Made by a program: the position numbers and the translations under genes
Virus record (IMG/VR): IMGVR_UViG_3300047159_000064
Reading direction: 5' to 3' (one strand)
DNA: 34,050 nucleotides
Source of the DNA: a virus
Taxonomy: Duplodnaviria > Heunggongvirae > Uroviricota > Caudoviricetes
Notes under the pieces: generated by a model
Told to the model about the DNA's origin: nothing
Seen by the model: the letters and a program-made list of their open reading frames with translations, nothing else
The model's database searches: none
Shown here: piece after piece, positions 1-32,237 of the stretch
Position numbering within the stretch: position 1 is the stretch's first letter
How the letters are laid out: every line of letters starts with the position of its first letter

Positions 1-165
1 AAAGCCGACGGCTGAGCCGACGGCCTAGATGGAGCGCCTGATGGATCCCGACACCACACTGTCGCTTTGGAAGAGCGACGTACTTCCTTTATACTACAGA
101 CGCAAACAAAGCCGCGCAGACATCTCTGTCAAGCGCGGCCAAGCTGATGCTGGTTTTAAGCCTTA

Positions 166-894: not shown

Positions 895-970
895 TGGACT
901 CCTTGCAGAGATTTAAACTCTGATCACAGACTTAGGAGGTCTATATCTTATTCAGTTAGAAGACAAGGAG
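895..970 (-). tRNA. tRNA-Arg(CCT), AT-rich divergent
   Basis: Perfect CTCCTTG/CAAGGAG acceptor, T-CCA end, loop CT-CCT-AA; non-canonical T loop TTTAAAT and D loop. Confidence 0.7.
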
Positions 971-5551: not shown

Positions 5552-5745
5552 GCTCTTTGTGCTATGAACTAAGATATATATATATATCAAACTGCTCCAC
5601 CCAGCAATATCAATAAAAGTTCCAGCTTGACCTTACCAAGCCCCTCATATTTTTGAGTTTGCAACCTCTAAATATGCATGCCACAGCTTCCAGCACTTTG
5701 GAACTAATACATTATACAATGTATTTTATTAGTTATTAGCAAATT

Positions 5746-6474
5746 TTAATTATAAAGTTCAGTTATTTTAGATACTTTATAATTTTCTAAAACATACCTT
5801 ATACACGGTTTAATATCTGTTCCATATAAAACTTGTATACTTTTTCCAGATTGTCTAACTGCAGCATATTTTAATTGGTCTTTTTCAACTTCTCGGCCCT
5901 TTATTTCAATATACTGCCCGTCAACAATATAATCTGGAGTGTAATAATGAGTTTTACCCTTATACTTGTATTTGAATCTATCAGTACAACGGCTTATTTG
6001 CTTATTATTATCTTTACAATAGATATAATAAGCTAATTCCCAAGTAGACATATGATATATTCCATCATATCAGCCACCCTTACTATGTAAATTTCTAGGA
6101 TTATCAGAATGATTATAATTTAATAGCTTTTCTGAAATAAGAGCTTTCGTTTCTTCTGATAAATGTTTTCCAGTCATTGGTCCAGGATGAGTCTCATAAA
6201 ATTTTTTCTTTCCTTCTGAGATCTTTTTAATTACATCGCTAGTTTCTGCAGTTAGTCCTTTTGCTCAATTTTTGCCCCTGCCTGTATATCTATTGTTATG
6301 ATTATTTGGACCACAATGAGCTAAATGATATTTTAAACGTGTCCAATAAAATAACTTATGACATTTTGGACACTCTACCTTAACATTAGTTGGATTTAAC
6401 TCACACGCTTGAATATGCCTTGCCAATTTCTGCTTTGTTTCAAATTCTTTGCTACAATACTTACACTTATACAT
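5746..6474 (-). CDS. Zinc-finger/NUMOD3-like/PD-(D/E)XK homing-type endonuclease, 242 aa with two in-frame TGA
   Basis: Track ORFs 6265..6474 and 5746..6051 are one frame joined by TGA at 6267-6265 and 6072-6070; CKYC..HIQAC, CPKC..HLAHC, GKHLSEETKALIS, YTPDYIVDGQYIEIKG. Confidence 0.85.
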
Positions 6475-6521
6475 AATTAAATGCTCCTTATATATTATAC
6501 ATTTAATTTAGCATATTTTTT

Positions 6522-6554
6522 AAGTCCCGTGCCTTACCGCTTGGCTACTCGGAA
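6522..6554 (-). pseudogene. 5' half of an interrupted Gln-like tRNA
   Basis: TTCCGAG-TA-GCC-AAGCGGTAA-GGC-A-CGGGA-CTT, then AT-rich sequence. Confidence 0.7.
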
Positions 6555-6567
6555 ATAATTCTATCGG

Positions 6568-6900
6568 CTAGAAGCTCATCTTCCTGAGCTCTTCCGCCAA
6601 ACGATTCTTTCTGGCTTTAAGCGTGTCTATCTCATGGTCTATGCCGCGTATCTTGCTTTTTATCTTATTCATATCTATAATCAGCTTCGCACGCTCCAGA
6701 TCGCCGTCGCTGGATATTCGCTCGAACTCTGGAGCGTCGCTGACGTACAGCCACGGATTGCTGCTGCGGCCGCCCATGTCTATGTAATCGTCGCCGAAGT
6801 AATCTACGCAGCGCTTCGGCTTCTTGAACACTTTGATTATCTCTGAGCCGGAAGCGACCATATCGCCTTTGCTCAGGCTCATAAGCTCTTCTATCGTCAT
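6568..6900 (-). CDS. Hypothetical protein with C-terminal coiled coil
   Basis: 110-aa ORF, AAAGGAG RBS, TAG stop. Confidence 0.8.
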   Translation of the reverse strand: MTIEELMSLSKGDMVASGSEIIKVFKKPKRCVDYFGDDYIDMGGRSSNPWLYVSDAPEFERISSDGDLERAKLIIDMNKIKSKIRGIDHEIDTLKARKNRLAEELRKMSF

Positions 6901-7326: not shown

Positions 7327-7387
7327 ATTTAATTTAGCCTATTTATTTTTATTTTTTAATTATTTCGACATATTTCGTCAAAACGAC

Positions 7388-7485
7388 TGGCAGGAGCGGA
7401 AGGTGTCAAGCCCTCATAACTAAGGATGGACCCCTAGCTCACGATTTTGAAGATCGTTTCCATCGTCGGATGGTAAGACGCTCCT
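7388..7485 (-). tRNA. Opal-reading tRNA(TCA) with Trp-type acceptor and long variable arm
   Basis: AGGAGCG/CGCTCCT, G73-CCA; ACGAT-CTTCAAA-ATCGT; D stem CCATC/GATGG with 4-nt loop; 8-bp variable stem; T arm GAGGG-CTTGACA-CCTTC. Confidence 0.82.
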
Positions 7486-7498
7486 ATTAGGCGAACGA

Positions 7499-7693
7499 TT
7501 ATCTGCCTGATTGCTTTTCAGCTTCGGCGACAGACGCTTCGTATCATCCTATAAGCTCTTCGCAGGATTCGGCTATGAGACGCGCTTCCGTCAATTTGAT
7601 AACGGAAGGCGCGTCTAAGTCATATTCTTCTTTGAGCCTATCAGCGCGTTTTAGCAGAAGCGCGACCGAAGCGGCCTCGCTCTGCTTAGGCAT
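7499..7693 (-). CDS. Small helical protein (64 aa) with in-frame TGA at codon 50
   Basis: ATG overlaps the end of the upstream gene; frame continues ...EELIG[TGA]YEASVAEAEKQSGR-TAA. Confidence 0.5.
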
Positions 7694-9650
7694 TAAGCTT
7701 GCCCCCGTTTACCAAGGCGACAAGCTTCTCGAGCTCCCAGGTTCTCACGACGGTCTGGCCTTCCTTAGGAGTATACGTGTTGCTGAACACGATGGTGGCG
7801 TCTTCCGGCTTGACCACGCTGTATTCGCTGCGCAAATCGGCGACCAAGCCGCAGTTGAACTCGAGCGACGAATCGCTCATGTAGCGCATTACGACTTTGA
7901 GATCCTCAGGGCAGAGCACAAGGTTGTTGGCGTCGCGGATCATGTTGAGCATGACCACTTCGTTCTTCTCCAAGTCGAACGCGAACGCGATGCAGGCACG
8001 AGAATCGCCCTTGACCTGGAACTGGAACTCGATGTTCTTCGGATCCCAGGCTCTCGTCGCCAGGTTCTCTTTGTTCTGATAGCCGCAGAAGATCTCGCCT
8101 TCGTTGAGATTGGAAGCGAAGCCGTTAAAGGCCTGAATGACGTACTTATAGCCCTTGGCCTTGAGCTCAGAGAGCTTGAGATCGTAGTATTCGGATCCTG
8201 CGGCGTCGCGGCAGTCGCCTGAGAACATGATGGATAAGCCAAACGGCTTAGCCGCATAGTTATAGAAGCCGATCGTCGACACGTCGCCGTTGTCCTTGAC
8301 CAAAATCAAGGAAGAGTCGATGTCGAAAGCGTCTTTCCAATAAACGAAAGTGCGGATGTTGTCGTATCGGCACGGCAAGCGCGATCCGGTAGGAACGACG
8401 TCGATTCCTTTGCCGCCGGTCGAGGTGTTAGAAGGAATGCCGATCTTGTAGAATTCGTCAGACACGTAAGATTTGCCGATAGACGGCATAGCCGCGAACG
8501 CGTCCTTGACCTTCTGGCCGACCAAGTCGTGCAAAAGCTTCTTCGTCGAATCGTTGAGCTTGGATTTTCTCCAGGTGCTCTCGTAATCCGTTTCGATGTG
8601 GCGCTTCATGCGGTTGTTCTTAAAGAACGCGAACGTGCGAGGTCCTTCTTTGTCTTCAGACAAAGTAGAGACCATCTGGTAGAGAACGATAGGATTCTTC
8701 GCCGGAATCAAGTCTAAGATCTTGCCCGCTTCGATAGGATTGGCTCTCGAAAGCAAGTATTTGATGTTTCTCTGAAGCAACGAGCCATTGTGCGCGTAAA
8801 CCTGAGCGGCGCCGTAAACGTCTCCAGCGCGCATCTTGGCTTCGGCGAGCTTGTACGGAGAATTCGCGTTCGTCGCGACATTGGCCTTGACGCCGCAAAG
8901 GCTGCCGATCTTATTGTAGTATTTAGCCTGCTTTTTGGTGAGCGGGCAATCGTGGACCAAAGGATAGCATTCCTTGATGAGCTCTAGGTCGGTGCCTGAA
9001 TTCGCTTTCTTGTAATCGAATTTCTTGCAGTCGCCAAACATCGAAACAGAGAGCTTGACTAAGTCTTTCTTATCTAAGAAGCGCGCGAATTTGACGTTCT
9101 TTCTCAAAAGAGCAAAAACGTTTTCGCGGCACTTGATTTCGGTGCCTTTGTAATAGCCGTTTTCGAACAGCCATTCGAATTCGGCCTGCTCCTGGAGCCC
9201 AAACGGACGGGTATAGGCGCAATAAGAATCTGCCACGCCGCAAAGAATCTTCGTGGCTTCGTCCATCGTGACGATCTGGAACTCGCGGAGCTTCAATTCG
9301 TCGCCGACTTTGTATTCCGGCAGATCCTTGGCGTAGAGCTTGATGCGGTCGTAATAGCCGACGGTCTCCACCGCCAAATAAGAGACGAGCTGCTCGACGA
9401 GCAATTCGTGTCTAGTGTAGTATTTGGTGTCCTGCGGATTGGCGTAGAAGCTCGCCGGAACGTTGAGCTTGAACTCTCCGGAGATGATTTTGACCATCCC
9501 TTCGCTCAAAAGCTCAGGATGATTAACGACGACCCCGAAGTTGGCCAAAAGATACGCGTTGTAATAAGCGCTCTTTGCCTTATCGATTTGCGCGCCGTCC
9601 TCCAATAAGTAGTGGCGAGCAAACAGCAACTTGTCCATCGTAGATTCCAT
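7686..9650 (-). CDS. Large alpha-helical + C-terminal TerD-like domain protein (candidate RNA-binding partner of the Y-like RNAs)
   Basis: C-terminal RTFVYW...DIDSSL...FSGD...GSEYYDL...FCGY pattern resembles TerD-like folds; N-terminal ~400 aa look helical; no vWA DxSxS motif. Confidence 0.7.
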   Translation of the reverse strand: MESTMDKLLFARHYLLEDGAQIDKAKSAYYNAYLLANFGVVVNHPELLSEGMVKIISGEFKLNVPASFYANPQDTKYYTRHELLVEQLVSYLAVETVGYYDRIKLYAKDLPEYKVGDELKLREFQIVTMDEATKILCGVADSYCAYTRPFGLQEQAEFEWLFENGYYKGTEIKCRENVFALLRKNVKFARFLDKKDLVKLSVSMFGDCKKFDYKKANSGTDLELIKECYPLVHDCPLTKKQAKYYNKIGSLCGVKANVATNANSPYKLAEAKMRAGDVYGAAQVYAHNGSLLQRNIKYLLSRANPIEAGKILDLIPAKNPIVLYQMVSTLSEDKEGPRTFAFFKNNRMKRHIETDYESTWRKSKLNDSTKKLLHDLVGQKVKDAFAAMPSIGKSYVSDEFYKIGIPSNTSTGGKGIDVVPTGSRLPCRYDNIRTFVYWKDAFDIDSSLILVKDNGDVSTIGFYNYAAKPFGLSIMFSGDCRDAAGSEYYDLKLSELKAKGYKYVIQAFNGFASNLNEGEIFCGYQNKENLATRAWDPKNIEFQFQVKGDSRACIAFAFDLEKNEVVMLNMIRDANNLVLCPEDLKVVMRYMSDSSLEFNCGLVADLRSEYSVVKPEDATIVFSNTYTPKEGQTVVRTWELEKLVALVNGGKLNA

Positions 9651-10791: not shown

Positions 10792-11136
10792 CTATGCGCT
10801 ATGGGCGCCAGAATCGGCTTTCCTGTCTTCATCGTCGTCGTCTTCGACGTCGACTGAGTCTTTGGCCAAGGTGACGCACATTCTACCGTCGTCTACGCAG
10901 AACCCGCTTATCTTGCGGCTTAGAAGCTCCGGGCTAAGCACCGTGTCCAGCGGATCCAAGTCATCGGCGAAATCGGAAATGCCGAAATCGAACCAGTGAT
11001 TGAGATCGTCGGCGTTATAGTAGATTCTCACGATAGAAGAGCTTTGCTTGACGGTGCCGTTCTTGTCAAGCTGAACCTCTTTGAACATGAAATACGACAG
11101 AAATACGTCTAAGCTAACAGTCGCTGTCTTATCCAT
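10792..11136 (-). CDS. Hypothetical protein, acidic tail
   Basis: 114 aa; TAATG overlap with the upstream gene. Confidence 0.8.
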   Translation of the reverse strand: MDKTATVSLDVFLSYFMFKEVQLDKNGTVKQSSSIVRIYYNADDLNHWFDFGISDFADDLDPLDTVLSPELLSRKISGFCVDDGRMCVTLAKDSVDVEDDDDEDRKADSGAHSA

Positions 11137-13349
11137 TATCGTTCGCCTCCCAGGAACCGGTCTCTCAGACTGATGATATCAGTCTTATAAGGATATTCCT
11201 TGGTCTCCTTGTTTCTGTCTTTATCATACAGCTTTCTGCAGAATCCGTAAAACGCGTTCTCCAATGAGTTCTGCAATGCGCCAGTTTTGGCGTAATAGCC
11301 GCAGCGAAGCGTCTGGTCGGCGACGCTGCGAAGTTTCTTCCATTGGTTGTAATAGCCTGTTTTGCACTTGGTCATGAAGCCATCGGAATCGACGAAAACG
11401 AAGCCTTCGATGTATCTGCCTTCGTATTTGTAGTCTTCGCTCTGCATGCCGGAGTAGACGCTCAAGAACTGATCCCAGTCCTTTAGTTCGAACGCTTTCT
11501 CTTTGACGCTGCAGCCGATCTTGTTATCGGCGAAATCCTTAAGATCGCTGTACGGAACTGTGCCGTATTCAAGCTTGTTGTAGATGCCGTCAAGCAATAC
11601 GATGTTGTTTTTGGCGTACTTGATGATATGAGGGTCATGCTCGACGTCCTCGCACTCGAACACCAGCGAGAGATCTGAGCCGCTTTCGTGATAATAGCGA
11701 AGGTACTTAAGCAAATTAGCATAATAAGGCTCAAGCTGCGCTCTGATGTATCCGGCGAAATCTCCGCCCGTCGTCGACTTAGACGCGATAAACAGGCTGT
11801 CGTTTCTGTAATCATAGGACACGATGGCCAAGAATCCGTTCTCCTTGACGTACGCGGTCACCGGGAATTTAAGCTTCGTGCGCAAAGCGCAGAGCTTAGT
11901 CTCAGCTGTTTCGTCGATGCGGAAAAACTTCTCGTAAGAGCGCGCCATGATTTTCTTATTCGTGACATCGATGAACAAGCCTCTGGCGAGAATGGTCTGC
12001 TTGTTCCAATTGCCCTGCCAGAAAGCGTCGCGGGTGAAATTGAAAGACGAAACGTCGGCGTCGAGGTGCTTTTCCTGGACGCAGTCGTTGTTGCGCAAAT
12101 ACGCGATGGCGTCTTCAACCGTGTCGACCTTGCGCTGCGTCGTGTCTTCGCTCTCTGTCACCGGCTGGCAGTCGTCAAGCTCGACGACGGTCCATTTCAG
12201 GTCCGCGGTCAATTCTACCAAACGGAGCTTGCCGCCGAATTCGACGCCGCCTTCGAGATTGAACACCCTGTCGGCGATCTGCGTCGGATCGTCGAAAACG
12301 TTGCGATGCGCATGAACCTGGAACTGATTGTCTTTGGAATCGCGCATCCAGACTTCGGCGATGGTCTGGCTGTCTTTGACGTCTCCGACGCCGTTGATGA
12401 AATCTTTCGTAGGAAGATACACCAAATTGTCTTTCATCGACGGAATGCCGCCGTGGCAAGCCAAAATCTCCAACCCGTTGTAAGTGAAATGCGACATCTG
12501 GCGGCATTTGCGATAGAGCATTCTCGCGTCTTTCTCGCTGATCCCGCCGGCGACGAGCTGCGGCTTCGTCTTCTGCTCGAATTCCAAAGAGGCGGCTTTC
12601 GCCGAATTGCCGAAGTCGCGGATGCTGACGTCGTGATTGCCTTCGAGCAGGCAGACGTTAGGCTTATTCATGATAGAAATGAGCCAGCGAACGACCTCGG
12701 CGTTCTGGTTGCCGCGATCAACGTAATCGCCTAAAAAGATATACTCGGTGTCGTCGGCCAAGCCGTTTTTGAAATACTGCATGGCTGTGTCGTAGCAGCC
12801 GCGGAGGCTTCCGACGAAAACGATTTTCTTGTACTGCGACAGATCGAAGCTTTTCTCAAGAACGGCGTCAAGCTCGTCAGGCTTAATAACCTTGATGCTG
12901 CCTGGTACCTTCTGAGTGGCGAATCTAGCGTAGATGTTCTCGATGCTGTCATCTGGCACCCATTTGTATTCCGGGCGCATTTTGTTGCGCTTAAGGCATT
13001 CGTCGAGCGGCACGCCGGTGAAATCTACGCAGAAAACATTGTACCGATACTGTTCGGCCAAATCTTTGTATTGCTGGATGTCTTTGGTCTTAGACGCGGT
13101 GGCGTCGATGACCGTGAACTCGCCTTTGCTCATGCGGTAATCGAGCATCTCGAAGAGAAGCTTCCATACCTCTGTCTCAACCTCGCGGTTGCGGCCGATC
13201 GAAAACGTGCCGTCGGCTTTCATGTCGATGGAGCTGCAAAGCACGCGAAGATCGTCTGGGCACAGCGTGTACTGCTCGAGATGATGCTCTTTGACCCAGG
13301 TCGATTTTCCTGCGCCAGGCGCCCCGCGAAGAATAAGCAATGTTCTCAT
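11136..13349 (-). CDS. Pnkp-like polynucleotide kinase / metallophosphoesterase / Rnl1-type RNA ligase fusion
   Basis: N-terminal GAPGAGKST P-loop and DAT motif; GDYVDRG and GNHD calcineurin-like motifs; C-terminal KENGF (KxxG) and EGFV..KCK ligase motifs. Confidence 0.92.
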   Translation of the reverse strand: MRTLLILRGAPGAGKSTWVKEHHLEQYTLCPDDLRVLCSSIDMKADGTFSIGRNREVETEVWKLLFEMLDYRMSKGEFTVIDATASKTKDIQQYKDLAEQYRYNVFCVDFTGVPLDECLKRNKMRPEYKWVPDDSIENIYARFATQKVPGSIKVIKPDELDAVLEKSFDLSQYKKIVFVGSLRGCYDTAMQYFKNGLADDTEYIFLGDYVDRGNQNAEVVRWLISIMNKPNVCLLEGNHDVSIRDFGNSAKAASLEFEQKTKPQLVAGGISEKDARMLYRKCRQMSHFTYNGLEILACHGGIPSMKDNLVYLPTKDFINGVGDVKDSQTIAEVWMRDSKDNQFQVHAHRNVFDDPTQIADRVFNLEGGVEFGGKLRLVELTADLKWTVVELDDCQPVTESEDTTQRKVDTVEDAIAYLRNNDCVQEKHLDADVSSFNFTRDAFWQGNWNKQTILARGLFIDVTNKKIMARSYEKFFRIDETAETKLCALRTKLKFPVTAYVKENGFLAIVSYDYRNDSLFIASKSTTGGDFAGYIRAQLEPYYANLLKYLRYYHESGSDLSLVFECEDVEHDPHIIKYAKNNIVLLDGIYNKLEYGTVPYSDLKDFADNKIGCSVKEKAFELKDWDQFLSVYSGMQSEDYKYEGRYIEGFVFVDSDGFMTKCKTGYYNQWKKLRSVADQTLRCGYYAKTGALQNSLENAFYGFCRKLYDKDRNKETKEYPYKTDIISLRDRFLGGER

Positions 13350-14471: not shown

Positions 14472-15701
14472 CTACTCTGTTCCGTAGTATTCGCTATAGA
14501 TCTCTTCCCAGTGATCCATGCCGTCTATGTAGTAAAGGCCTCCAGCTGCCGCCGCTTCAGCTTTCGTCAGCTTAGTGTATCGTATCTCGTGCATGACCTC
14601 TGAGTAATCGCCAGTCGGCTTATCCGCTCCGCCGAAATTATCCTGCGTCAGAAGATTCGGATTGGCTGAAGACGACCAGCTTAAGTGCGTCGTTGTGTAA
14701 GACGAATCTCTCGCATCTATGCCTTCATGGCTTCTGCCCATTACTGAAACAGCTACGACCGACAGCTTAGAAAAATCAGGCAGCTGATCTTCAGACAGCG
14801 GCTTCGGCCATTTGTAGCCGTTCATCAAATCTGCCGTATTCACGTTCGTCAAATCGAAGAACCCTCTTGGCTCATACGCCGATTCGGCATATATATTGCC
14901 GTCGTCGTCATCTAAGAACACTGTCGCTCCGCCTATGCGCTTCCAAAAATCATTGTACGGTCTCTCTGCGTCCTTATCGTCTTGCTTCTTCATCTTAAGC
15001 GCGATGTTAAGCAGATTATTGAATGCCTTAATAAGCAGTGCGTCATCCATAAAAGTTTGGCCAGTTATCTGCGCACGTTGGCTGTACTGGCTGCAAGCCG
15101 CATCTGCGTCGAAAGAGGCATGAATGGTTACATACACATCTTTAAGCTCATCTCTTCAGTCTCATGACATAACGTTATCGAGCGTTAGCTCCGGCTCTAA
15201 TCCTATTAACTTTTTGCACTCATCCAACAGCTTTTGATCGACCATTGACTTCAGCTGCGGGGCAATCTTTGCCACTCTTTCGTTCACCGCAGCCAGCGTC
15301 GTCTGAAGCTTAGCTGCGAAATCAATTCTGCTCTTAGCTTTTTCTTTTTCGCTAAAAGCATAGATATAATCATAATTATCCTTGAAAACGTGAACCCACA
15401 AAGCTATCGCAGCCTTGACTGCTGGAATATTTTTATCCTGCTTTATTATGTCGCCGTATACGCCGCGGCGCATAAGAGCGCCGCTATCATTGAAAATAGA
15501 CAAAAGCCCTAGACCTGACAACGCAGAATCATAAGCCATATGAAAAGCGTCTAAGTCTATTTTTTTTCTGTCCTTCAGCGTATCCGTATATAGCTTCAAA
15601 GCGGCGGCTGTGTCTGCAGCTGAAATGTTTATGTAGTCAGATTTATAGCTCTCGTCTAAGCGATTGAGCTCATCGAAAGCCTCCAATATATGTCTAGCCA
15701 T
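14472..15701 (-). CDS. Hypothetical 409-aa protein with two in-frame TGA (joins track ORFs 15162..15701 and 14472..15137)
   Basis: Same frame: ...VMS[TGA]D[TGA]RDELKDVYV...; AAGGAG RBS at the 15701 start. Confidence 0.75.
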
Positions 15702-15832
15702 TTTTATCTCCTTGCGCTTTAAATCAATATACGAGCATAAATTATGCTCTTGCTCATATAATTTAGCTCATTTTTAAGCCAAATAAAAAGCACCGGCAGA
15801 ATGAAGCCGATGCCCTACGGTCATAAATACAG

Positions 15833-22052: not shown

Positions 22053-22172
22053 GGTTAGAAGCTCCAAATCCGCGGCGCCATAATCGCGTCGCTCAATCAA
22101 ATAATTTAGCAAAATAAACCTGCGAAGGCAAAACAAAAAGCCGGCCTTTCGACCGGCTAACATCAACGATAG

Positions 22173-22682
22173 TTATACTCTTAGTACGTCGAGCGCCTTC
22201 TGGATGTCCCTTTCCTGGAAGCCGCCAGGCCTGACGTAATAATAGAACGTCTTGACGAGGCGCTTAATGAGATCCTCTTTGGCGTAGTCGAATTCCTCGT
22301 CGTCCAATATGACGAAGGAATCCTTGCTCTCGTCGTACTTATGCTCCGACAGCCAGAGCTTGATAGCGGCGCCTCTGCGGTTAGGCCCGCCTAGCTTGTC
22401 TTCCTCTGCCAGCGTGTTGCCGGAGATGACTACGCCGTACCGCCTGAACTTCGAAAGCATGTACTTCCTGAGCGGAGAGCCCGAAGGCAGCTCTTTCCAC
22501 GAGGACACCAAAACGACTTCGGCGCCGGAAAGATCTATCAGCTCGGCCAAAGCCTTCATGTGCGACGATCCGATCCCGATGTACCCGGAGCAGCGAGGGC
22601 CGTTCAGCCGCTTGCCCGTCTCTGAGTAGGAATCGCTCTCGGCGTTGAGCACCCCGTCTATGTCCAAGAACACGTATCGCAC
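22173..22682 (-). CDS. HAD-superfamily phosphatase (HAD_SAK-like)
   Basis: FLDIDGVLN motif I, VVLVSSW motif II, FVILDDE motif IV; GTG start 22682. Confidence 0.85.
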   Translation of the reverse strand: MRYVFLDIDGVLNAESDSYSETGKRLNGPRCSGYIGIGSSHMKALAELIDLSGAEVVLVSSWKELPSGSPLRKYMLSKFRRYGVVISGNTLAEEDKLGGPNRRGAAIKLWLSEHKYDESKDSFVILDDEEFDYAKEDLIKRLVKTFYYYVRPGGFQERDIQKALDVLRV

Positions 22683-22684
22683 GG

Positions 22685-23614
22685 TTAGACTCCGAGGACT
22701 TCGCGGACCTTGGCGGCGCAGAGCTGCTTGAGCACCTTGAAGTCGATCTTCGGGCTGTGGAATTTCTTGAGGATGATCTCCCAGTTGTCTCTGAAGAACT
22801 CGTCGAAGGCGCGGCCGATGAGCTCTGAGGTCATCTTCATGTCCCAGCCGTCCGCAGAATGGAGCTCGATGACCTTGGCCTTCTCTTTGGCGATGTGCTC
22901 GACGGTCATGAGCTTGACGATCTCGTATTCCACAGACTGGCCCGCCTGATCGGCCAAAGCCTTCTCGTGGCGCGATTCGTGCTTGTGGGCGAGATAGTCT
23001 TCGGTCAGCATCTTGGCCCAGGTGCGGCGGCCGTACTGGTTCTTGTATTCGTAGTTCTTGAGGACGATGCCTTCGCCGTAGTCGCCGGAGCCGATGAGGA
23101 ATTCCTTGGTGCGCGGAAGCAAGGCCTTGATGTCCTCTTCCGTCGGATCGCGCAGCTTGGCGAGAAGCGGGATGTAAAAGACGTGCGGGCATTCCGACTT
23201 GAGGATCTCGCTGTACTCGTCGTAAGACAGATATCGGCCGGTCTCGTCGTCGAGCACGTCGAACACGTAGAGGTGGCGCCAGGCGTCGTCTCTGTATGTC
23301 TTGAGGTTGGTAGGCACGAGCCATTCGCCGTAGACCGTCCACGAAGGATGCTTGGTGAGCAAGGCCAGGAGCTCCGCTCGGACGTCGGCGTTCTCAGGCG
23401 AGTTCATCGCCTTCACGAGGCCTTGGTTGTCTCCGAGCTTAGAATCGTCCAGAACGCGCTTTCTGGACCCGTAGGCGAGCTTTCCGCCTTGGTCGAGCCA
23501 AACGCACGTGTTGGTCCCGTCTATCTTGTAGAACGCGTATACGTCGCCTTTGAGGATGCCTTCTACTTCGGCGGTCCCCAGCTTCTCGACGTGTTGGTAC
23601 GGTTTGTATTCCAT
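22685..23614 (-). CDS. RNA ligase (Rnl2-like nucleotidyltransferase)
   Basis: KIDGTN motif I, VYGEW, YVFDV, GEGIVLKN, WAKM; start ATG 23614 after AGGAGG. Confidence 0.8.
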   Translation of the reverse strand: MEYKPYQHVEKLGTAEVEGILKGDVYAFYKIDGTNTCVWLDQGGKLAYGSRKRVLDDSKLGDNQGLVKAMNSPENADVRAELLALLTKHPSWTVYGEWLVPTNLKTYRDDAWRHLYVFDVLDDETGRYLSYDEYSEILKSECPHVFYIPLLAKLRDPTEEDIKALLPRTKEFLIGSGDYGEGIVLKNYEYKNQYGRRTWAKMLTEDYLAHKHESRHEKALADQAGQSVEYEIVKLMTVEHIAKEKAKVIELHSADGWDMKMTSELIGRAFDEFFRDNWEIILKKFHSPKIDFKVLKQLCAAKVREVLGV

Positions 23615-25667: not shown

Positions 25668-26438
25668 TTAGTCCTCCGGCTGGGCGATCAGCCTCTCGAT
25701 GTAATCCCTGCCTTCTTCGACGAACCGAGGGATCTCGAGGTCGATGACCCACTTGCCAGACGCGTCTCTTACGGCGCAGCATCCGCGCTTCTCGCACGTC
25801 GGCAGCTCGCCCCAGACGACGCCTTTGGATTCCAGCATCGACTTCTGCTCTCTGACGCTCTTGCCTTCAAGCTGCTTCTGGGAGAACAGCGCCTGGGCGT
25901 TTGACGAGACCGAGTTGCGCTCGGCGTCGATCTGCCGCCAAAGCACGCAGTTCGTGACTTCTTCCTTGGGGACGTTGAACGCCCTGGAATCGAAGTAAGC
26001 CCCTGAGGCCAGAGCCTTCTGATACGCCGGCTCGCACTCGAGATCGCCTTTGGCCATAGCCGCGGCGTGGAGCTCGGCGAAGACCCGGTTGAATTCCATC
26101 GCCGCCAGAGAGGCGGACACCGAGACGACCTTCTGGACGTCGTATCCGAACCAGGCCTCCGTGGTCAGCGTCGCGTAGTCCGTCAGCACGAGCGTGATCT
26201 CGTCCGACTGCGTGTATCCGAGCACGCACCCCTGGACGCTCTCGCAGAGGAAAAGCATCGTCTGCCGCATGGCTTCCGCCAGAAGCGGATCGCACGGCTT
26301 CTTGAACCCCCTCGCGTAAGTGTGGAAGTGGCAGCCGTCAAGCCTGATTATCACAGGCGTCCGCCTCGTCAGCTTCGGCTTGTTGGCCCCTTCGTAGCAC
26401 TCCTTCATCCTGTCGCCCAATTGATCCAGCATCGGCAT
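25668..26438 (-). CDS. thg1: tRNA(His) guanylyltransferase Thg1-like protein
   Basis: RMKECYE, IIRLDGCHFH, GYTQSDEITLV, FDSRAF, WRQIDAERNS hallmark motifs. Confidence 0.93.
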   Translation of the reverse strand: MPMLDQLGDRMKECYEGANKPKLTRRTPVIIRLDGCHFHTYARGFKKPCDPLLAEAMRQTMLFLCESVQGCVLGYTQSDEITLVLTDYATLTTEAWFGYDVQKVVSVSASLAAMEFNRVFAELHAAAMAKGDLECEPAYQKALASGAYFDSRAFNVPKEEVTNCVLWRQIDAERNSVSSNAQALFSQKQLEGKSVREQKSMLESKGVVWGELPTCEKRGCCAVRDASGKWVIDLEIPRFVEEGRDYIERLIAQPED

Positions 26439-29937: not shown

Positions 29938-30291
29938 TCAGTTTTGTCTCGGAAGTTCCCCTTTCTGGTAGGTGATTTCGGTCAGCACGAACCATTGGTT
30001 TTTGACGAGGTACTTTCGGATGGTGATCGCGCCTTTCCGACTGAGGAGTTCGGCGGCACCGTCATCCGCGTACACGCTCTCTCCCTCGCATCCTCCTACA
30101 AACGCTTTCGGGTCAAGGATGGTCTCTTCCCGGATTAGTTGGAGTTGGGAGTTGGCGCGGATTGGCGAGTCCTCGATGTCGAACGAGAACATACCGTCCG
30201 AACCGACATCGACCTTGTGGAGTTTGTTGTCCCCACCGAGGATGTAGAAGCAACCTACATCGGTGCTTCCGCTGATGAACCCGATTCTCAT
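29938..30291 (-). CDS. Hypothetical protein (apparent TGA stop)
   Basis: 117 aa; followed by terminator-like ATCCCTCG/CGAGGGAT-T tract. Confidence 0.75.
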   Translation of the reverse strand: MRIGFISGSTDVGCFYILGGDNKLHKVDVGSDGMFSFDIEDSPIRANSQLQLIREETILDPKAFVGGCEGESVYADDGAAELLSRKGAITIRKYLVKNQWFVLTEITYQKGELPRQN

Positions 30292-31229
30292 TTTTTGTCT
30301 CCTTTCCCGAAGATCAGCTCGTTCATGACCTTCTCGTCGAAGTTCGGCAGTTTCCTAATCTCCGCCAATTCGTCTTCGGTCGGTTCGCGGCGCATCGCGA
30401 CGCACGATGCCAAATATCGGTATCCGTCCGTCTTCTCGATTTCGATGTGCTTCATCGGCGTGTATCTGTTGAAGATTACGCAACCGCCGCCCGTGTTGAA
30501 GATGCCGCACGCTCCATCGGCGCGATTGTATGAACCAATGTTGCGATCGCCTTTGTTCGAGTTGCCCACGTTCCAGTTGCCCTTGTTGCGGTTGCCCACG
30601 TTGCCGTTGCCCTCGTTCGAGTCGCCCTCGTTCGAGTTGCCCTCGTTGCAGTCGCCCTTGTTCCAGTCGCCCTTGTTGCAGTCGCCCTTGTTGCAGTCGC
30701 CCTCGTTGCCGTCGCCCTTGTTGCAGTCGCCCACGTTCGAGTTGCCTTTGTTCGAGTCGCCCTTGTTGCCGTTGCCCTCGTTCGAGTCGCCCTTGTTGCC
30801 GTTGCCCTCGTTGCAGTCGCCCTCGTTCGAGTCGCCCTTGTTGCCGTTGCCCTCGTTCGAGTCGCCCTTGTTGCCGTCGCCCTCGTTCGAGTCGCCCTTG
30901 TTGCAGTCGCCCTTGTTCGACCACCCGGAATTTCTTGATCCTTCGTTCACAAGGGATAAGAACTCCTGCAAGGGGATCTCGCGGACGATTTTGATTTCGG
31001 AGCAAACGCATTTGCCGTCGCCTTCGATGATCTCCCCGGATGCCTCGATCTCGCAGTAGCGGCAAGCGGGCAAGTCGGCGTAGTAACCATAAATCTGCTT
31101 CGGTTCTTTGCAAAAATGGAATCCGTTCACGCAGAGTTTGATCTTTCCTTTGCATTCATAGGTCTTGCCCACTTCGTATTGGAACCCCCTGCATTTCAAA
31201 TCCTTATCGAATCCTTTGTAGCCTTTCAT
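30288..31229 (-). CDS. Phage protein with KGYKG-type N-terminal domain and G(D/N)xN(K/E) pentapeptide tandem repeats
   Basis: MKGYKGFDKDLKCRGFQYEVGKTY...GFHFC; 15-nt tandem repeats ~30530-30930. Confidence 0.85.
   Translation of the reverse strand: MKGYKGFDKDLKCRGFQYEVGKTYECKGKIKLCVNGFHFCKEPKQIYGYYADLPACRYCEIEASGEIIEGDGKCVCSEIKIVREIPLQEFLSLVNEGSRNSGWSNKGDCNKGDSNEGDGNKGDSNEGNGNKGDSNEGDCNEGNGNKGDSNEGNGNKGDSNKGNSNVGDCNKGDGNEGDCNKGDCNKGDWNKGDCNEGNSNEGDSNEGNGNVGNRNKGNWNVGNSNKGDRNIGSYNRADGACGIFNTGGGCVIFNRYTPMKHIEIEKTDGYRYLASCVAMRREPTEDELAEIRKLPNFDEKVMNELIFGKGDKK
30530..30930. repeat. Coding 15-bp tandem repeat
   Basis: Units such as gtcgcccttgttgca / gtcgccctcgttcga / gttgccctcgttcga. Confidence 0.9.
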
Positions 31230-31531
31230 TTGTTTTCTCCTTGACCATAGTCTAAAAGTTGACCGCAATATGGGCAATGCGGATATGTGCTTGCGAGATA
31301 TTCATGGCATTTAGGACACTCGAAGAAGAATCTATTTGGGATTGCTTTCATCGGCTTCTCGGATTGCTCGATTAAGTTAGCGCAATCGGTATAGGCTTGG
31401 ATTTCCCCGTTAAGTCTCGTGATATCGGGATATTTGACGTAGGTGTGGTATTGCTCAAACTCTTCGACAAGCGGTTTTCGCTCGTCAAACAAGGCGTTGA
31501 TTTTGTCTTTCAGGATTTGCTTAATGTCCAT
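31226..31531 (-). CDS. Hypothetical protein with C-terminal double zinc ribbon
   Basis: CPKCHEYL...HCPYCGQLLDY; ATGA overlap with the next gene. Confidence 0.8.
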   Translation of the reverse strand: MDIKQILKDKINALFDERKPLVEEFEQYHTYVKYPDITRLNGEIQAYTDCANLIEQSEKPMKAIPNRFFFECPKCHEYLASTYPHCPYCGQLLDYGQGENK

Positions 31532-31865
31532 TCACTTATCCTCCAGTCCAAGGTCAGAAGGGGCGTATCTCTTAGTTTCTTCAATTCCTTTGAACATTCC
31601 TTTTTTGAAATGGAAGAAATCGTTTTGCTCACACGGATTGGCGGTGATCAACTCAACAAGAACATACCCGTCGCAAATTATGAAATTGATTCCATGTATC
31701 TTAAAAGCCGATAAGCCGATAAGTTTGTTGAGCAATGCTTTTTCTTCTTCCGTCAGCAAATCGGGAACCTCGATTTCGATTGTTTGGTCGAGGAACTTGT
31801 CGGAAAAATCCTCTTTGTTGTAAAGCCAGCAATTCTCATCACGCTCATTGCATAGTACGTGTATT
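31532..31865 (-). pseudogene. 5'-truncated gene (..VLCNERDENCWLYNKEDFSDKFLDQTIEIEV..)
   Basis: Protein-like frame with no start or RBS; begins inside the upstream ORF. Confidence 0.5.
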
Positions 31866-32172
31866 CTCCGAAATGAGCGATTTCCGGATAGCCGGTCTTG
31901 TACTTGTCGTACTGCCATCTCTTCTTCTTGGGAGCCCAATGGAGCTCGACGATCTCGCCGGACTCGTCTTTGAGCATCTTCGTCGGCAGAGAATCGTAAT
32001 ACTGCGGCCCGTCGAACACGCACTTCGCGGCTTGGATGAGGACCGAATTCTGATTGACCTGGATGACGTCGTACGGCCGCTTGACCATGTCCACCCAGCT
32101 GTCTCCTGTCTCTTGGCTGAGATACAGCTTGTCTCCGACCTTAGGGAATTCTTTCTCGTTTTCCATGCTCAT
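31753..32172 (-). CDS. Hypothetical protein, C-terminus apparently replaced by out-of-frame sequence
   Basis: AAGGAG RBS; protein-like to ~YPEIAHFGEY, then non-protein-like. Confidence 0.6.
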   Translation of the reverse strand: MSMENEKEFPKVGDKLYLSQETGDSWVDMVKRPYDVIQVNQNSVLIQAAKCVFDGPQYYDSLPTKMLKDESGEIVELHWAPKKKRWQYDKYKTGYPEIAHFGEYTYYAMSVMRIAGFTTKRIFPTSSSTKQSKSRFPIC

Positions 32173-32237
32173 TGCTCTCCTTGCGATATTATAATACCGC
32201 ATCGCCCGTCGTTTGTAAACGATTTTCCGAAGAAAAT

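Follow-up and report, generated by a model that had tools for sequence, protein, structure and literature searches.

Genomic setting of the tRNA(UCA) locus

The window, by which we mean the whole analysed stretch of 34,050 nt from a phage of the class Caudoviricetes (IMG/VR record IMGVR_UViG_3300047159_000064), is part of a large phage, one of its proteins being found in identical form on a 212-kb contig, and the sequence examined covered about 45 kb of this roughly 212-kb genome. Assemblies of the phage come from bioreactor sludge and wastewater. On the minus strand, a 98-nt gene, encoded CCA included, runs from 7485 to 7388 and specifies a tRNA with the anticodon UCA, hereafter tRNA(UCA), which stands first in a tRNA array with at least 16 genes (Table 1). 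A small ORF with a TGA in frame lies just upstream, as an earlier sequence-only reading of the locus had pointed out, although the gap measures 13 nt rather than the 14 it gave, and only if the TGA is read through. This ORF is a real gene, in which all four strain changes fall in third codon positions, and it is likely co-transcribed with tRNA(UCA); its TGA may simply be a stop. In the syntenic phage L138, no such tRNA is present behind the 64-aa ORF. A sigma-70 scan remained at chance level (14 vs. 9.2 +/- 3.6), and it provided no promoter or terminator for the tRNA.

Table 1. Coordinates of the tRNA(UCA) gene, its structural elements and other features of the window
Feature	Position	Strand	Remarks
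tRNA(UCA) gene, 7/5 acceptor branch	7388..7485	-	Cloverleaf fold; ranked first (61.1 bits) by the held-out family model R1
Acceptor stem, 5′ strand	7479..7485	-	7 bp, pairs with 7392-7398; G73 at 7391
D arm	7460..7473	-	5-bp stem, tetraloop CGAC without GG
Decoding anticodon arm	7441..7457	-	5-bp stem, loop CUUCAAA; anticodon UCA at 7450-7448
Second (extra) arm	7418..7439	-	8-bp stem, loop GUCCAU; CCA at 7429-7427, U-CCA at 7430-7427
T arm	7399..7415	-	5 bp (G49-C65, A50-U64, G51-U63), non-canonical loop CUUGACA (C54, U56)
ORF, 64 codons	7499..7693	-	TGA at 7546-7544, which as a stop would leave 49 codons; lies 13 nt upstream of tRNA
Zinc-finger/NUMOD3 endonuclease gene, 242 codons	5746..6474	-	In-frame TGA at codons 70, 135; candidate client
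409-codon gene	14472..15701	-	In-frame TGA at codons 180, 182; candidate client
Core gene, 243 codons	21321..22052	-	In-frame TGA at codon 8; candidate client
Motif GCTAAATT	22103-22110, 15760-15767, 6505-6512		Seven more in window
RNA-repair set	11136-13349, 22173-23614, 25668-26438		

The window also harbors an RNA-repair set composed of Pnkp-Rnl (a kinase-phosphatase-Rnl1 fusion, 11136-13349), a second RNA ligase (22685-23614), HAD_SAK_2 and Thg1. None of the 20 window proteins scanned matched a synthetase, and Terminase_6N and RF-1 had no match in the related genomes. The region 7686-9650 encodes a 654-aa protein with more than 500 homologues, no Pfam match and a weak match to NCBIfam RING_SCO0854.

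Several parts of the array and its surroundings vary between strains. A 1.3-kb AT-rich segment at about 840-2130, containing an HNH gene, tRNA-Leu(CAA) and tRNA-Arg(CCU), is missing in other strains (L144, 2198-2271; L145, 88-163); it splits a tRNA-like gene, and the tRNA-Arg(UCU) left at 812-890 is a chimera whose acceptor is mispaired. Within this segment, the complete tRNA-Leu(CAA) gene (1505-1590) is located inside the frame of the HNH endonuclease (1234-2067), both on the minus strand, and the tRNA at 895-970 (minus strand, anticodon CCU) has C1-G72 and U73, scores under the Rfam threshold and is of uncertain amino acid. A tRNA-Gly(UCC)-like gene at 30-103 (minus strand) has an odd T loop and was found by Rfam at 42 bits but missed by ARAGORN. 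Two phage tRNA-Ser genes with A1-U72 and G73 were found at L144 5488-5575 and L120 16303-16391. At the other end of the window, 29938-32200 (compared with L561, 8635-12089) constitutes a strain-variable cassette in which one TGA-terminated gene carries DUF7666 and pentapeptide repeats, while other strains carry different genes there (HNH, HD_4), stopped by TAA or TAG.

Predicted fold and acceptor identity

All structural elements listed by the sequence-only reading (the acceptor pairs, G73, the CUUCAAA loop, the D stem with a 4-nt loop, the 8-bp arm and the CUUGACA loop) are present in the predicted fold; that reading gave no strand, and it missed the U-CCA in the loop of the extra arm. The minimum free energy fold coincides with the centroid (-34 kcal/mol, z -2.35, with 4 of 200 shuffles folding equally well), its pair probabilities range from 0.66 to 1.0, and a UCA cloverleaf of such kind was obtained in none of 200 shuffled windows. 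The gene is a real tRNA, and its fold is not due to chance. The plus-strand reading was discarded, as its fold is not better than those of shuffles (z -1.09). The tRNA sequence is identical in three other assemblies; moreover, a strain contig from an RNA library, which attests presence of the tRNA in the library and says nothing on transcription, strand or processing, has 37 differences in 7580-8417 and none in 7378-7579, the tRNA region.

Standard tools pass over this gene. ARAGORN did not call it, and Rfam gave no match at gathering thresholds or in a 5.6-kb E-value scan; on a 131-nt stretch, the best match was tRNA-Sec (RF01852), with 32.6 bits (E 2.9e-5) against a gathering score of 47. 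The D arm is the origin of this likeness to tRNA-Sec.

The first five acceptor pairs, A1-U72, G2-C71, G3-C70, A4-U69 and G5-C68, are those of the phage tRNA-Trp(CCA) in L120 and L130, including A-U at 4-69. Bacterial Trp acceptor identity consists of G73, A1-U72, G2-C71, G3-C70 and G5-C68, with G4-C69 in B. subtilis (PMC9976931, PMC2965240), and the window tRNA has this set, with A-U at 4-69. The acceptor had thus been rightly described as Trp-type as far as its features are concerned, but these do not by themselves prove Trp, since CUUCAAA and G73 also occur in tRNA-Sec (PMC5330540) and the phage's own tRNA-Ser(CGA) has A1-U72 and G73.

Bacterial tRNA-Sec, including 7/5 forms (RF01852; PMC5330540), shares with the window tRNA the UCA anticodon, G73, a long D stem with a tetraloop and a long extra arm, and ARAGORN labels relatives of the window tRNA SeC. 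The 7/5 fold, in place of the 13-bp (8/5) branch of bacterial tRNA-Sec, had been taken to speak against tRNA-Sec; the fold stands, but the argument does not, as 47 such 7/5 cases are known (PMC5330540). An ordinary selC gene, requiring SelA, SelB and SECIS, is nonetheless extremely improbable, in agreement with the sequence-only reading. The SelB determinants are C7-G66, G49-U65 and C50-G64 (PMC9976931), whereas the window tRNA has G7-C66, G49-C65 and A50-U64 and scores well below the Rfam gathering threshold. The gene sits within a phage tRNA array, no Sel family was recognized among the 20 window proteins and no SelA in five phage genomes, a look-up that had been suggested earlier. No TGA of this phage is found opposite Cys, TGA facing Trp instead, and a true tRNA-Sec (L223) lacks the CCA loop that the window tRNA carries on its extra arm.

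A second anticodon arm and the two-arm family

In the second arm of the window tRNA, U-CCA is found 38 nt before G73 and 21 nt after UCA; in the ordinary tRNA-Trp(CCA) of L120 and L130, the distance from the anticodon to G73 is also 38 nt. We sought relatives with a pattern specifying the acceptor ends and the UCA loop only, which yielded five 7/5 tRNAs from phage-like tRNA loci. All five carry the CCA motif, as does L164, and in four of the five a second complete Trp anticodon arm with the loop CUCCAAA is inserted between the UCA arm and the T arm. A widened search, in which the motif was selected for, brought the family to 32 distinct two-arm sequences, thereby answering the proposal that phage genomes be searched for the same fold. 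In all 32, U-CCA is located 37-39 nt before G73 and 20-23 nt after UCA, and G2-C71 and G3-C70 are invariant, although these are partly fixed by the search pattern. When the motif was left out of the pattern, U-CCA was still found in 26 of 27 distinct long-armed phage UCA tRNAs, and in none of 68 other long-armed tRNAs of Ser, Leu or Tyr type. The long-armed UCA tRNA at L527 2905-3002 has no CCA loop, while those at L200 276-374 and L423 413-512 have a Ser-type D arm and an irregular second arm, with UCCAA still present.

All five helices covary across the family, the decoding anticodon stem at all five pairs; the second arm shows double changes at four of its five modelled pairs, its loop being kept while the stem covaries, and compensatory changes in this arm also separate the window copy from L548. 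Kinship inflates such counts, but slid controls drop to 35-47% paired, vs. 93% for the true alignment. With the held-out model, the window copy ranked first of 103 matches, but an ordinary tRNA-Ser reached 59.5 bits, and we therefore take the register, rather than the model score, as evidence. The family model aligns the arm of ordinary tRNA-Trp onto the second arm and deletes the first.

The family forms a gradient. At one end (L278, L222, L446), a canonical Trp body bears an exactly duplicated Trp anticodon arm; at the other (L548, L421, L164), the D stem is long. The D arm changes from that of canonical tRNA-Trp to the tetraloop form, accompanied by altered T loops, that is common to L164, L498, L431 and the window copy. 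The gradient indicates that the Sec likeness is a secondary, derived state of a Trp-derived molecule, and the description of the body as Sec/Ser-like has to be given up insofar as it implied such descent. Judging from the aligned relatives, the window tRNA is not a Trp/Sec chimera, and its long arm is a worn second hairpin with the normal Trp anticodon. It is very divergent, with a preferred 6-nt loop in the second arm, the tetraloop D arm and the altered T loop; its nearest forms are L548 and L421, the latter at 73% identity. U37, the U after CCA, occurs in the window copy alone of the 32, the family otherwise having A37 and a 7-nt second loop. The size of this loop varies among other members too, so that the 6-nt loop marks the window copy as a variant.

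In IMG/VR, matched patterns recovered 27 distinct long-armed UCA forms and three single-arm ones, and the two-arm form may thus be the common design. Short exact patterns gave chance matches only, except for one pattern with one true relative (L164) among 28, and no relative came up among 50,697 phage records searched with blastn. Matches in GTDB sit in bins of unrelated phyla and are probably mis-binned phage contigs, and thus name no host. The L164 locus also contains a ROOL RNA (6177-6764, 327 bits), 2.2 kb from the family tRNA.

In-frame TGA codons and a mixed code

Six in-frame TGA codons are present in four window genes, and the same 27-gene block, which contains 81 TGG codons, otherwise terminates in TAA or TAG. 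In the endonuclease gene, codon 70 is opposite Trp in all 23 homologues and codon 135 opposite Trp in 13, Tyr in nine and Lys in one, with a 72%-identical homologue having TGG at both positions. Codon 8 of the core gene is TGG in an 89%-identical strain (L185). In the strain contig L144, a second endonuclease has TGA within its WNKGLT motif. The 409-codon gene reaches the length of its family (370-445 aa in most homologues, with alignment to either side of the break) only if both TGAs are read through; its junction aligns too poorly for naming the residue at the TGAs. Read-through-requiring genes are retained there in all ten other assemblies checked. The 5553-6522 region with the endonuclease gene is missing from some strains, and another phage (L130) has in its tRNA array a copy of this gene that is 96% identical and carries these TGAs too.

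Across the family loci, 95 alignable TGA sites face Trp in 52 cases, Phe or Tyr in 18, Ser in six and Cys in two, some loci being duplicates and plus-strand sites (antisense frames) having been left out. TGA as a genuine terminator was found elsewhere in the phage: among the 15 genes at 26.5-33.8 kb it ends five, where ATGA overlaps occur and the read-through sequence is non-coding, and it ends six of the 40 genes in the strain contig L561. With TGA a stop in some genes and facing Trp in others, the code is mixed; a wholly code-4 host is ruled out by these true stops. The motif GCTAAATT occurs ten times in the window (1.7 expected, 0 of 100 shuffles), nine of these copies being on the coding strand and most of them immediately preceding a gene. 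Of the four TGA-containing genes, three have their own copy 38-66 nt upstream, as does the L144 endonuclease, and the motif is a candidate late promoter, by which suppression would be timed late.

Very probably, tRNA(UCA) is an opal suppressor that inserts Trp. A UGA decoder of undescribed architecture had been proposed for the locus, and both the family and the TGA sites facing Trp lend it support at the level of sequence comparison. The TGA of the adjacent ORF, offered as additional support, is present but contributes little, as it faces Ser in the only homologue (64 aa, 41% identity).

That Ser opposite TGA could also be accommodated by an opal suppressor charged by SerRS, delivered by EF-Tu and inserting Ser, or a mixture of Ser and Trp, as do allo-tRNAs inserting Ser (Mukai et al., PMC5389517). 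The 8-bp long arm, G73 and the tetraloop D arm fit such a tRNA, as do the top Rfam match to tRNA-Sec and A1-U72 in the phage's own tRNA-Ser(CGA). Allo-tRNAs and selC* tRNA-Cys share the Sec-like D arm and the long arm, and some selC* tRNAs also combine A1-U72 with UCA; however, their branches are 8/4 or 9/3, and they carry Ser or Ala, or Cys via U73 and a dedicated CysRS* (PMC5389517). In the window tRNA, U8 cannot pair with C65, leaving the branch at 7/5 in place of 8/4 or 9/3, and neither the U73 nor the bulged 8/4 branch of selC* tRNAs is present, position 73 being G. TGA stands in place of an invariant Trp and alternates with TGG, whereas five of the six Ser-facing family sites are one and the same site in copies of one phage. 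We consider insertion of Ser improbable. A SerRS-charged tRNA of Sec-derived origin was dropped because of the TGG strain polymorphism and the duplicated Trp arms of relatives.

Proposed charging of the probable suppressor

G73, the anticodon and the first acceptor pairs are the elements by which bacterial TrpRS recognizes its tRNA (PMC9976931, PMC2965240). A suppressor with UCA loses C34, and the second arm would supply the missing CCA again, as far from the acceptor end as in ordinary tRNA-Trp. We propose that tRNA(UCA) arose from tRNA-Trp when its anticodon arm was duplicated, that its first arm would read UGA on the ribosome, and that host TrpRS would charge it through the second arm, making a phage synthetase unneeded. 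Because the SelB box is absent, the charged tRNA would be delivered by EF-Tu. Genes with an in-frame TGA could then be made full length in a standard-code host, with TGA still ending other genes. This entire scheme, in which the second arm of an opal suppressor tRNA-Trp serves as a handle for host TrpRS, is in our judgement somewhat probable.

Class Ic synthetases are absent from 25 phage records with long-armed UCA tRNAs, ten of which are at least 90% complete. A related 237-kb phage (L558, G005) has a single-arm tRNA-Trp(UCA) at 229814-229888 and its own trpS 2.6 kb downstream, at 232444-233241, a contrast that concerns one single-arm lineage, the other two single-arm tRNAs being on incomplete contigs. 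Against the handle, single-arm UCA tRNAs are functional both in code-4 bacteria and when engineered as suppressors (PMC13462651, PMC2965240), and hence it is not strictly needed; G73 together with an 8-bp arm acts as a determinant for serine (PMC9976931); the loop of the window copy is the most worn of the 32; and a phage trpS or another UCA tRNA may lie outside the roughly 45 kb examined.

All the evidence for Trp fits equally well a Trp opal suppressor whose UCA arm is read directly by TrpRS, the second arm serving as a decoy that draws off nucleases of the Trp anticodon, keeping SerRS away, stabilising the molecule or being a relic of the duplication. The RNA-repair enzymes of the window point to nuclease pressure, as a decoy would suppose, and the long-armed UCA tRNA of L527 without CCA and the degenerate loop of the window copy are compatible with decoy or relic. 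However, a relic is not expected to keep U-CCA in the 37-39 nt register during stem turnover, and a decoy requires no fixed distance from the acceptor end. Taken together, these possibilities appear to us unlikely.

Many relatives possess two perfect 5-bp/7-nt anticodon arms, which raises the prospect of a two-way decoder that refolds to place either arm in the decoding center and read UGA or UGG; in addition, tRNA-Trp(CCA) was not seen in the window or the strain contigs L144-L146, within the incompletely covered array. A second arm is unnecessary for reading UGG, however, since U34 already wobble-pairs with G, and several family loci retain a separate tRNA-Trp(CCA). The second arm of the window copy has a 6-nt loop, G32 and U37, and second loops elsewhere in the family often depart from decoding geometry (G32 in 11 of 32), and this is more in line with a binding handle than with a decoder. 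Such dual decoding is very improbable.

The window copy may be decaying, having lost the D-loop GG, U54, C56 and A37 of the second arm. That it is already inactive is highly improbable, as every stem is intact and the CCA end retained, the tRNA is unchanged in a strain that is about 4% divergent next door, and genes requiring read-through persist.

Returning to the handle, we tentatively suggest, at a level of confidence short of even, a tRNA class that separates identity, with the CCA hairpin presented to the synthetase, from decoding, with the UCA hairpin presented to the ribosome. A five-way junction that can stack in two alternative ways would probably make this possible. The handle would work with four bases in a 6-nt loop and with the canonical D/T elbow lost.

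Comparison with known systems and implications

TGA suppression itself is like that of known code-4 phage suppressors, and the new element is the two-arm structure. Code-4 phages of the Jade and Agate clades likewise use UCA, with partial TGA=Trp and standard-code genes alongside, and Jade phages, like G005, pair their suppressor tRNA with their own TrpRS; a second arm, as in the window tRNA, is not described in the accessible part of that preprint (Borges et al., bioRxiv 10.1101/2021.08.26.457843). Bacterial tRNA-Trp(CCA) and code-4 tRNA-Trp(UCA) have the same acceptor identity, G73, CUUCAAA or CUCCAAA loops and the 38-nt register, but, unlike the window tRNA, are type I molecules of about 75 nt with one anticodon arm and canonical D and T loops (PMC13462651). 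The E. coli thrS operator is also a natural RNA with two anticodon-like hairpins binding a synthetase; it differs in being the leader of an mRNA, where it serves feedback control, and has neither an acceptor end nor a decoding role (PMC9976931). In a literature search mostly outside subscription journals, we found no paper on a second or duplicated anticodon arm in phage tRNAs, the one match for duplicated anticodon arms being a speculative refolding of chloroplast tRNA-Ser.

The two-arm family offers an answer to two open questions. Borges et al. (bioRxiv 10.1101/2021.08.26.457843) report a suppressor in only 35% of TGA-recoded genomes, suspect non-canonical structures and leave charging open. 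One question is how suppressor tRNAs of recoding phages are charged without a phage synthetase; the other is why most phage suppressors go undetected, ARAGORN and Rfam missing the window tRNA and relatives being labelled SeC. The locus described here adds a very divergent family member, a core gene in which strains differ between TGA and TGG, and the contrast in the presence of trpS. If the handle model is true, a synthetase that depends on the anticodon is able to charge a tRNA decoding another codon, which would amount to a new rule of tRNA identity and a design principle for suppressor tRNAs.
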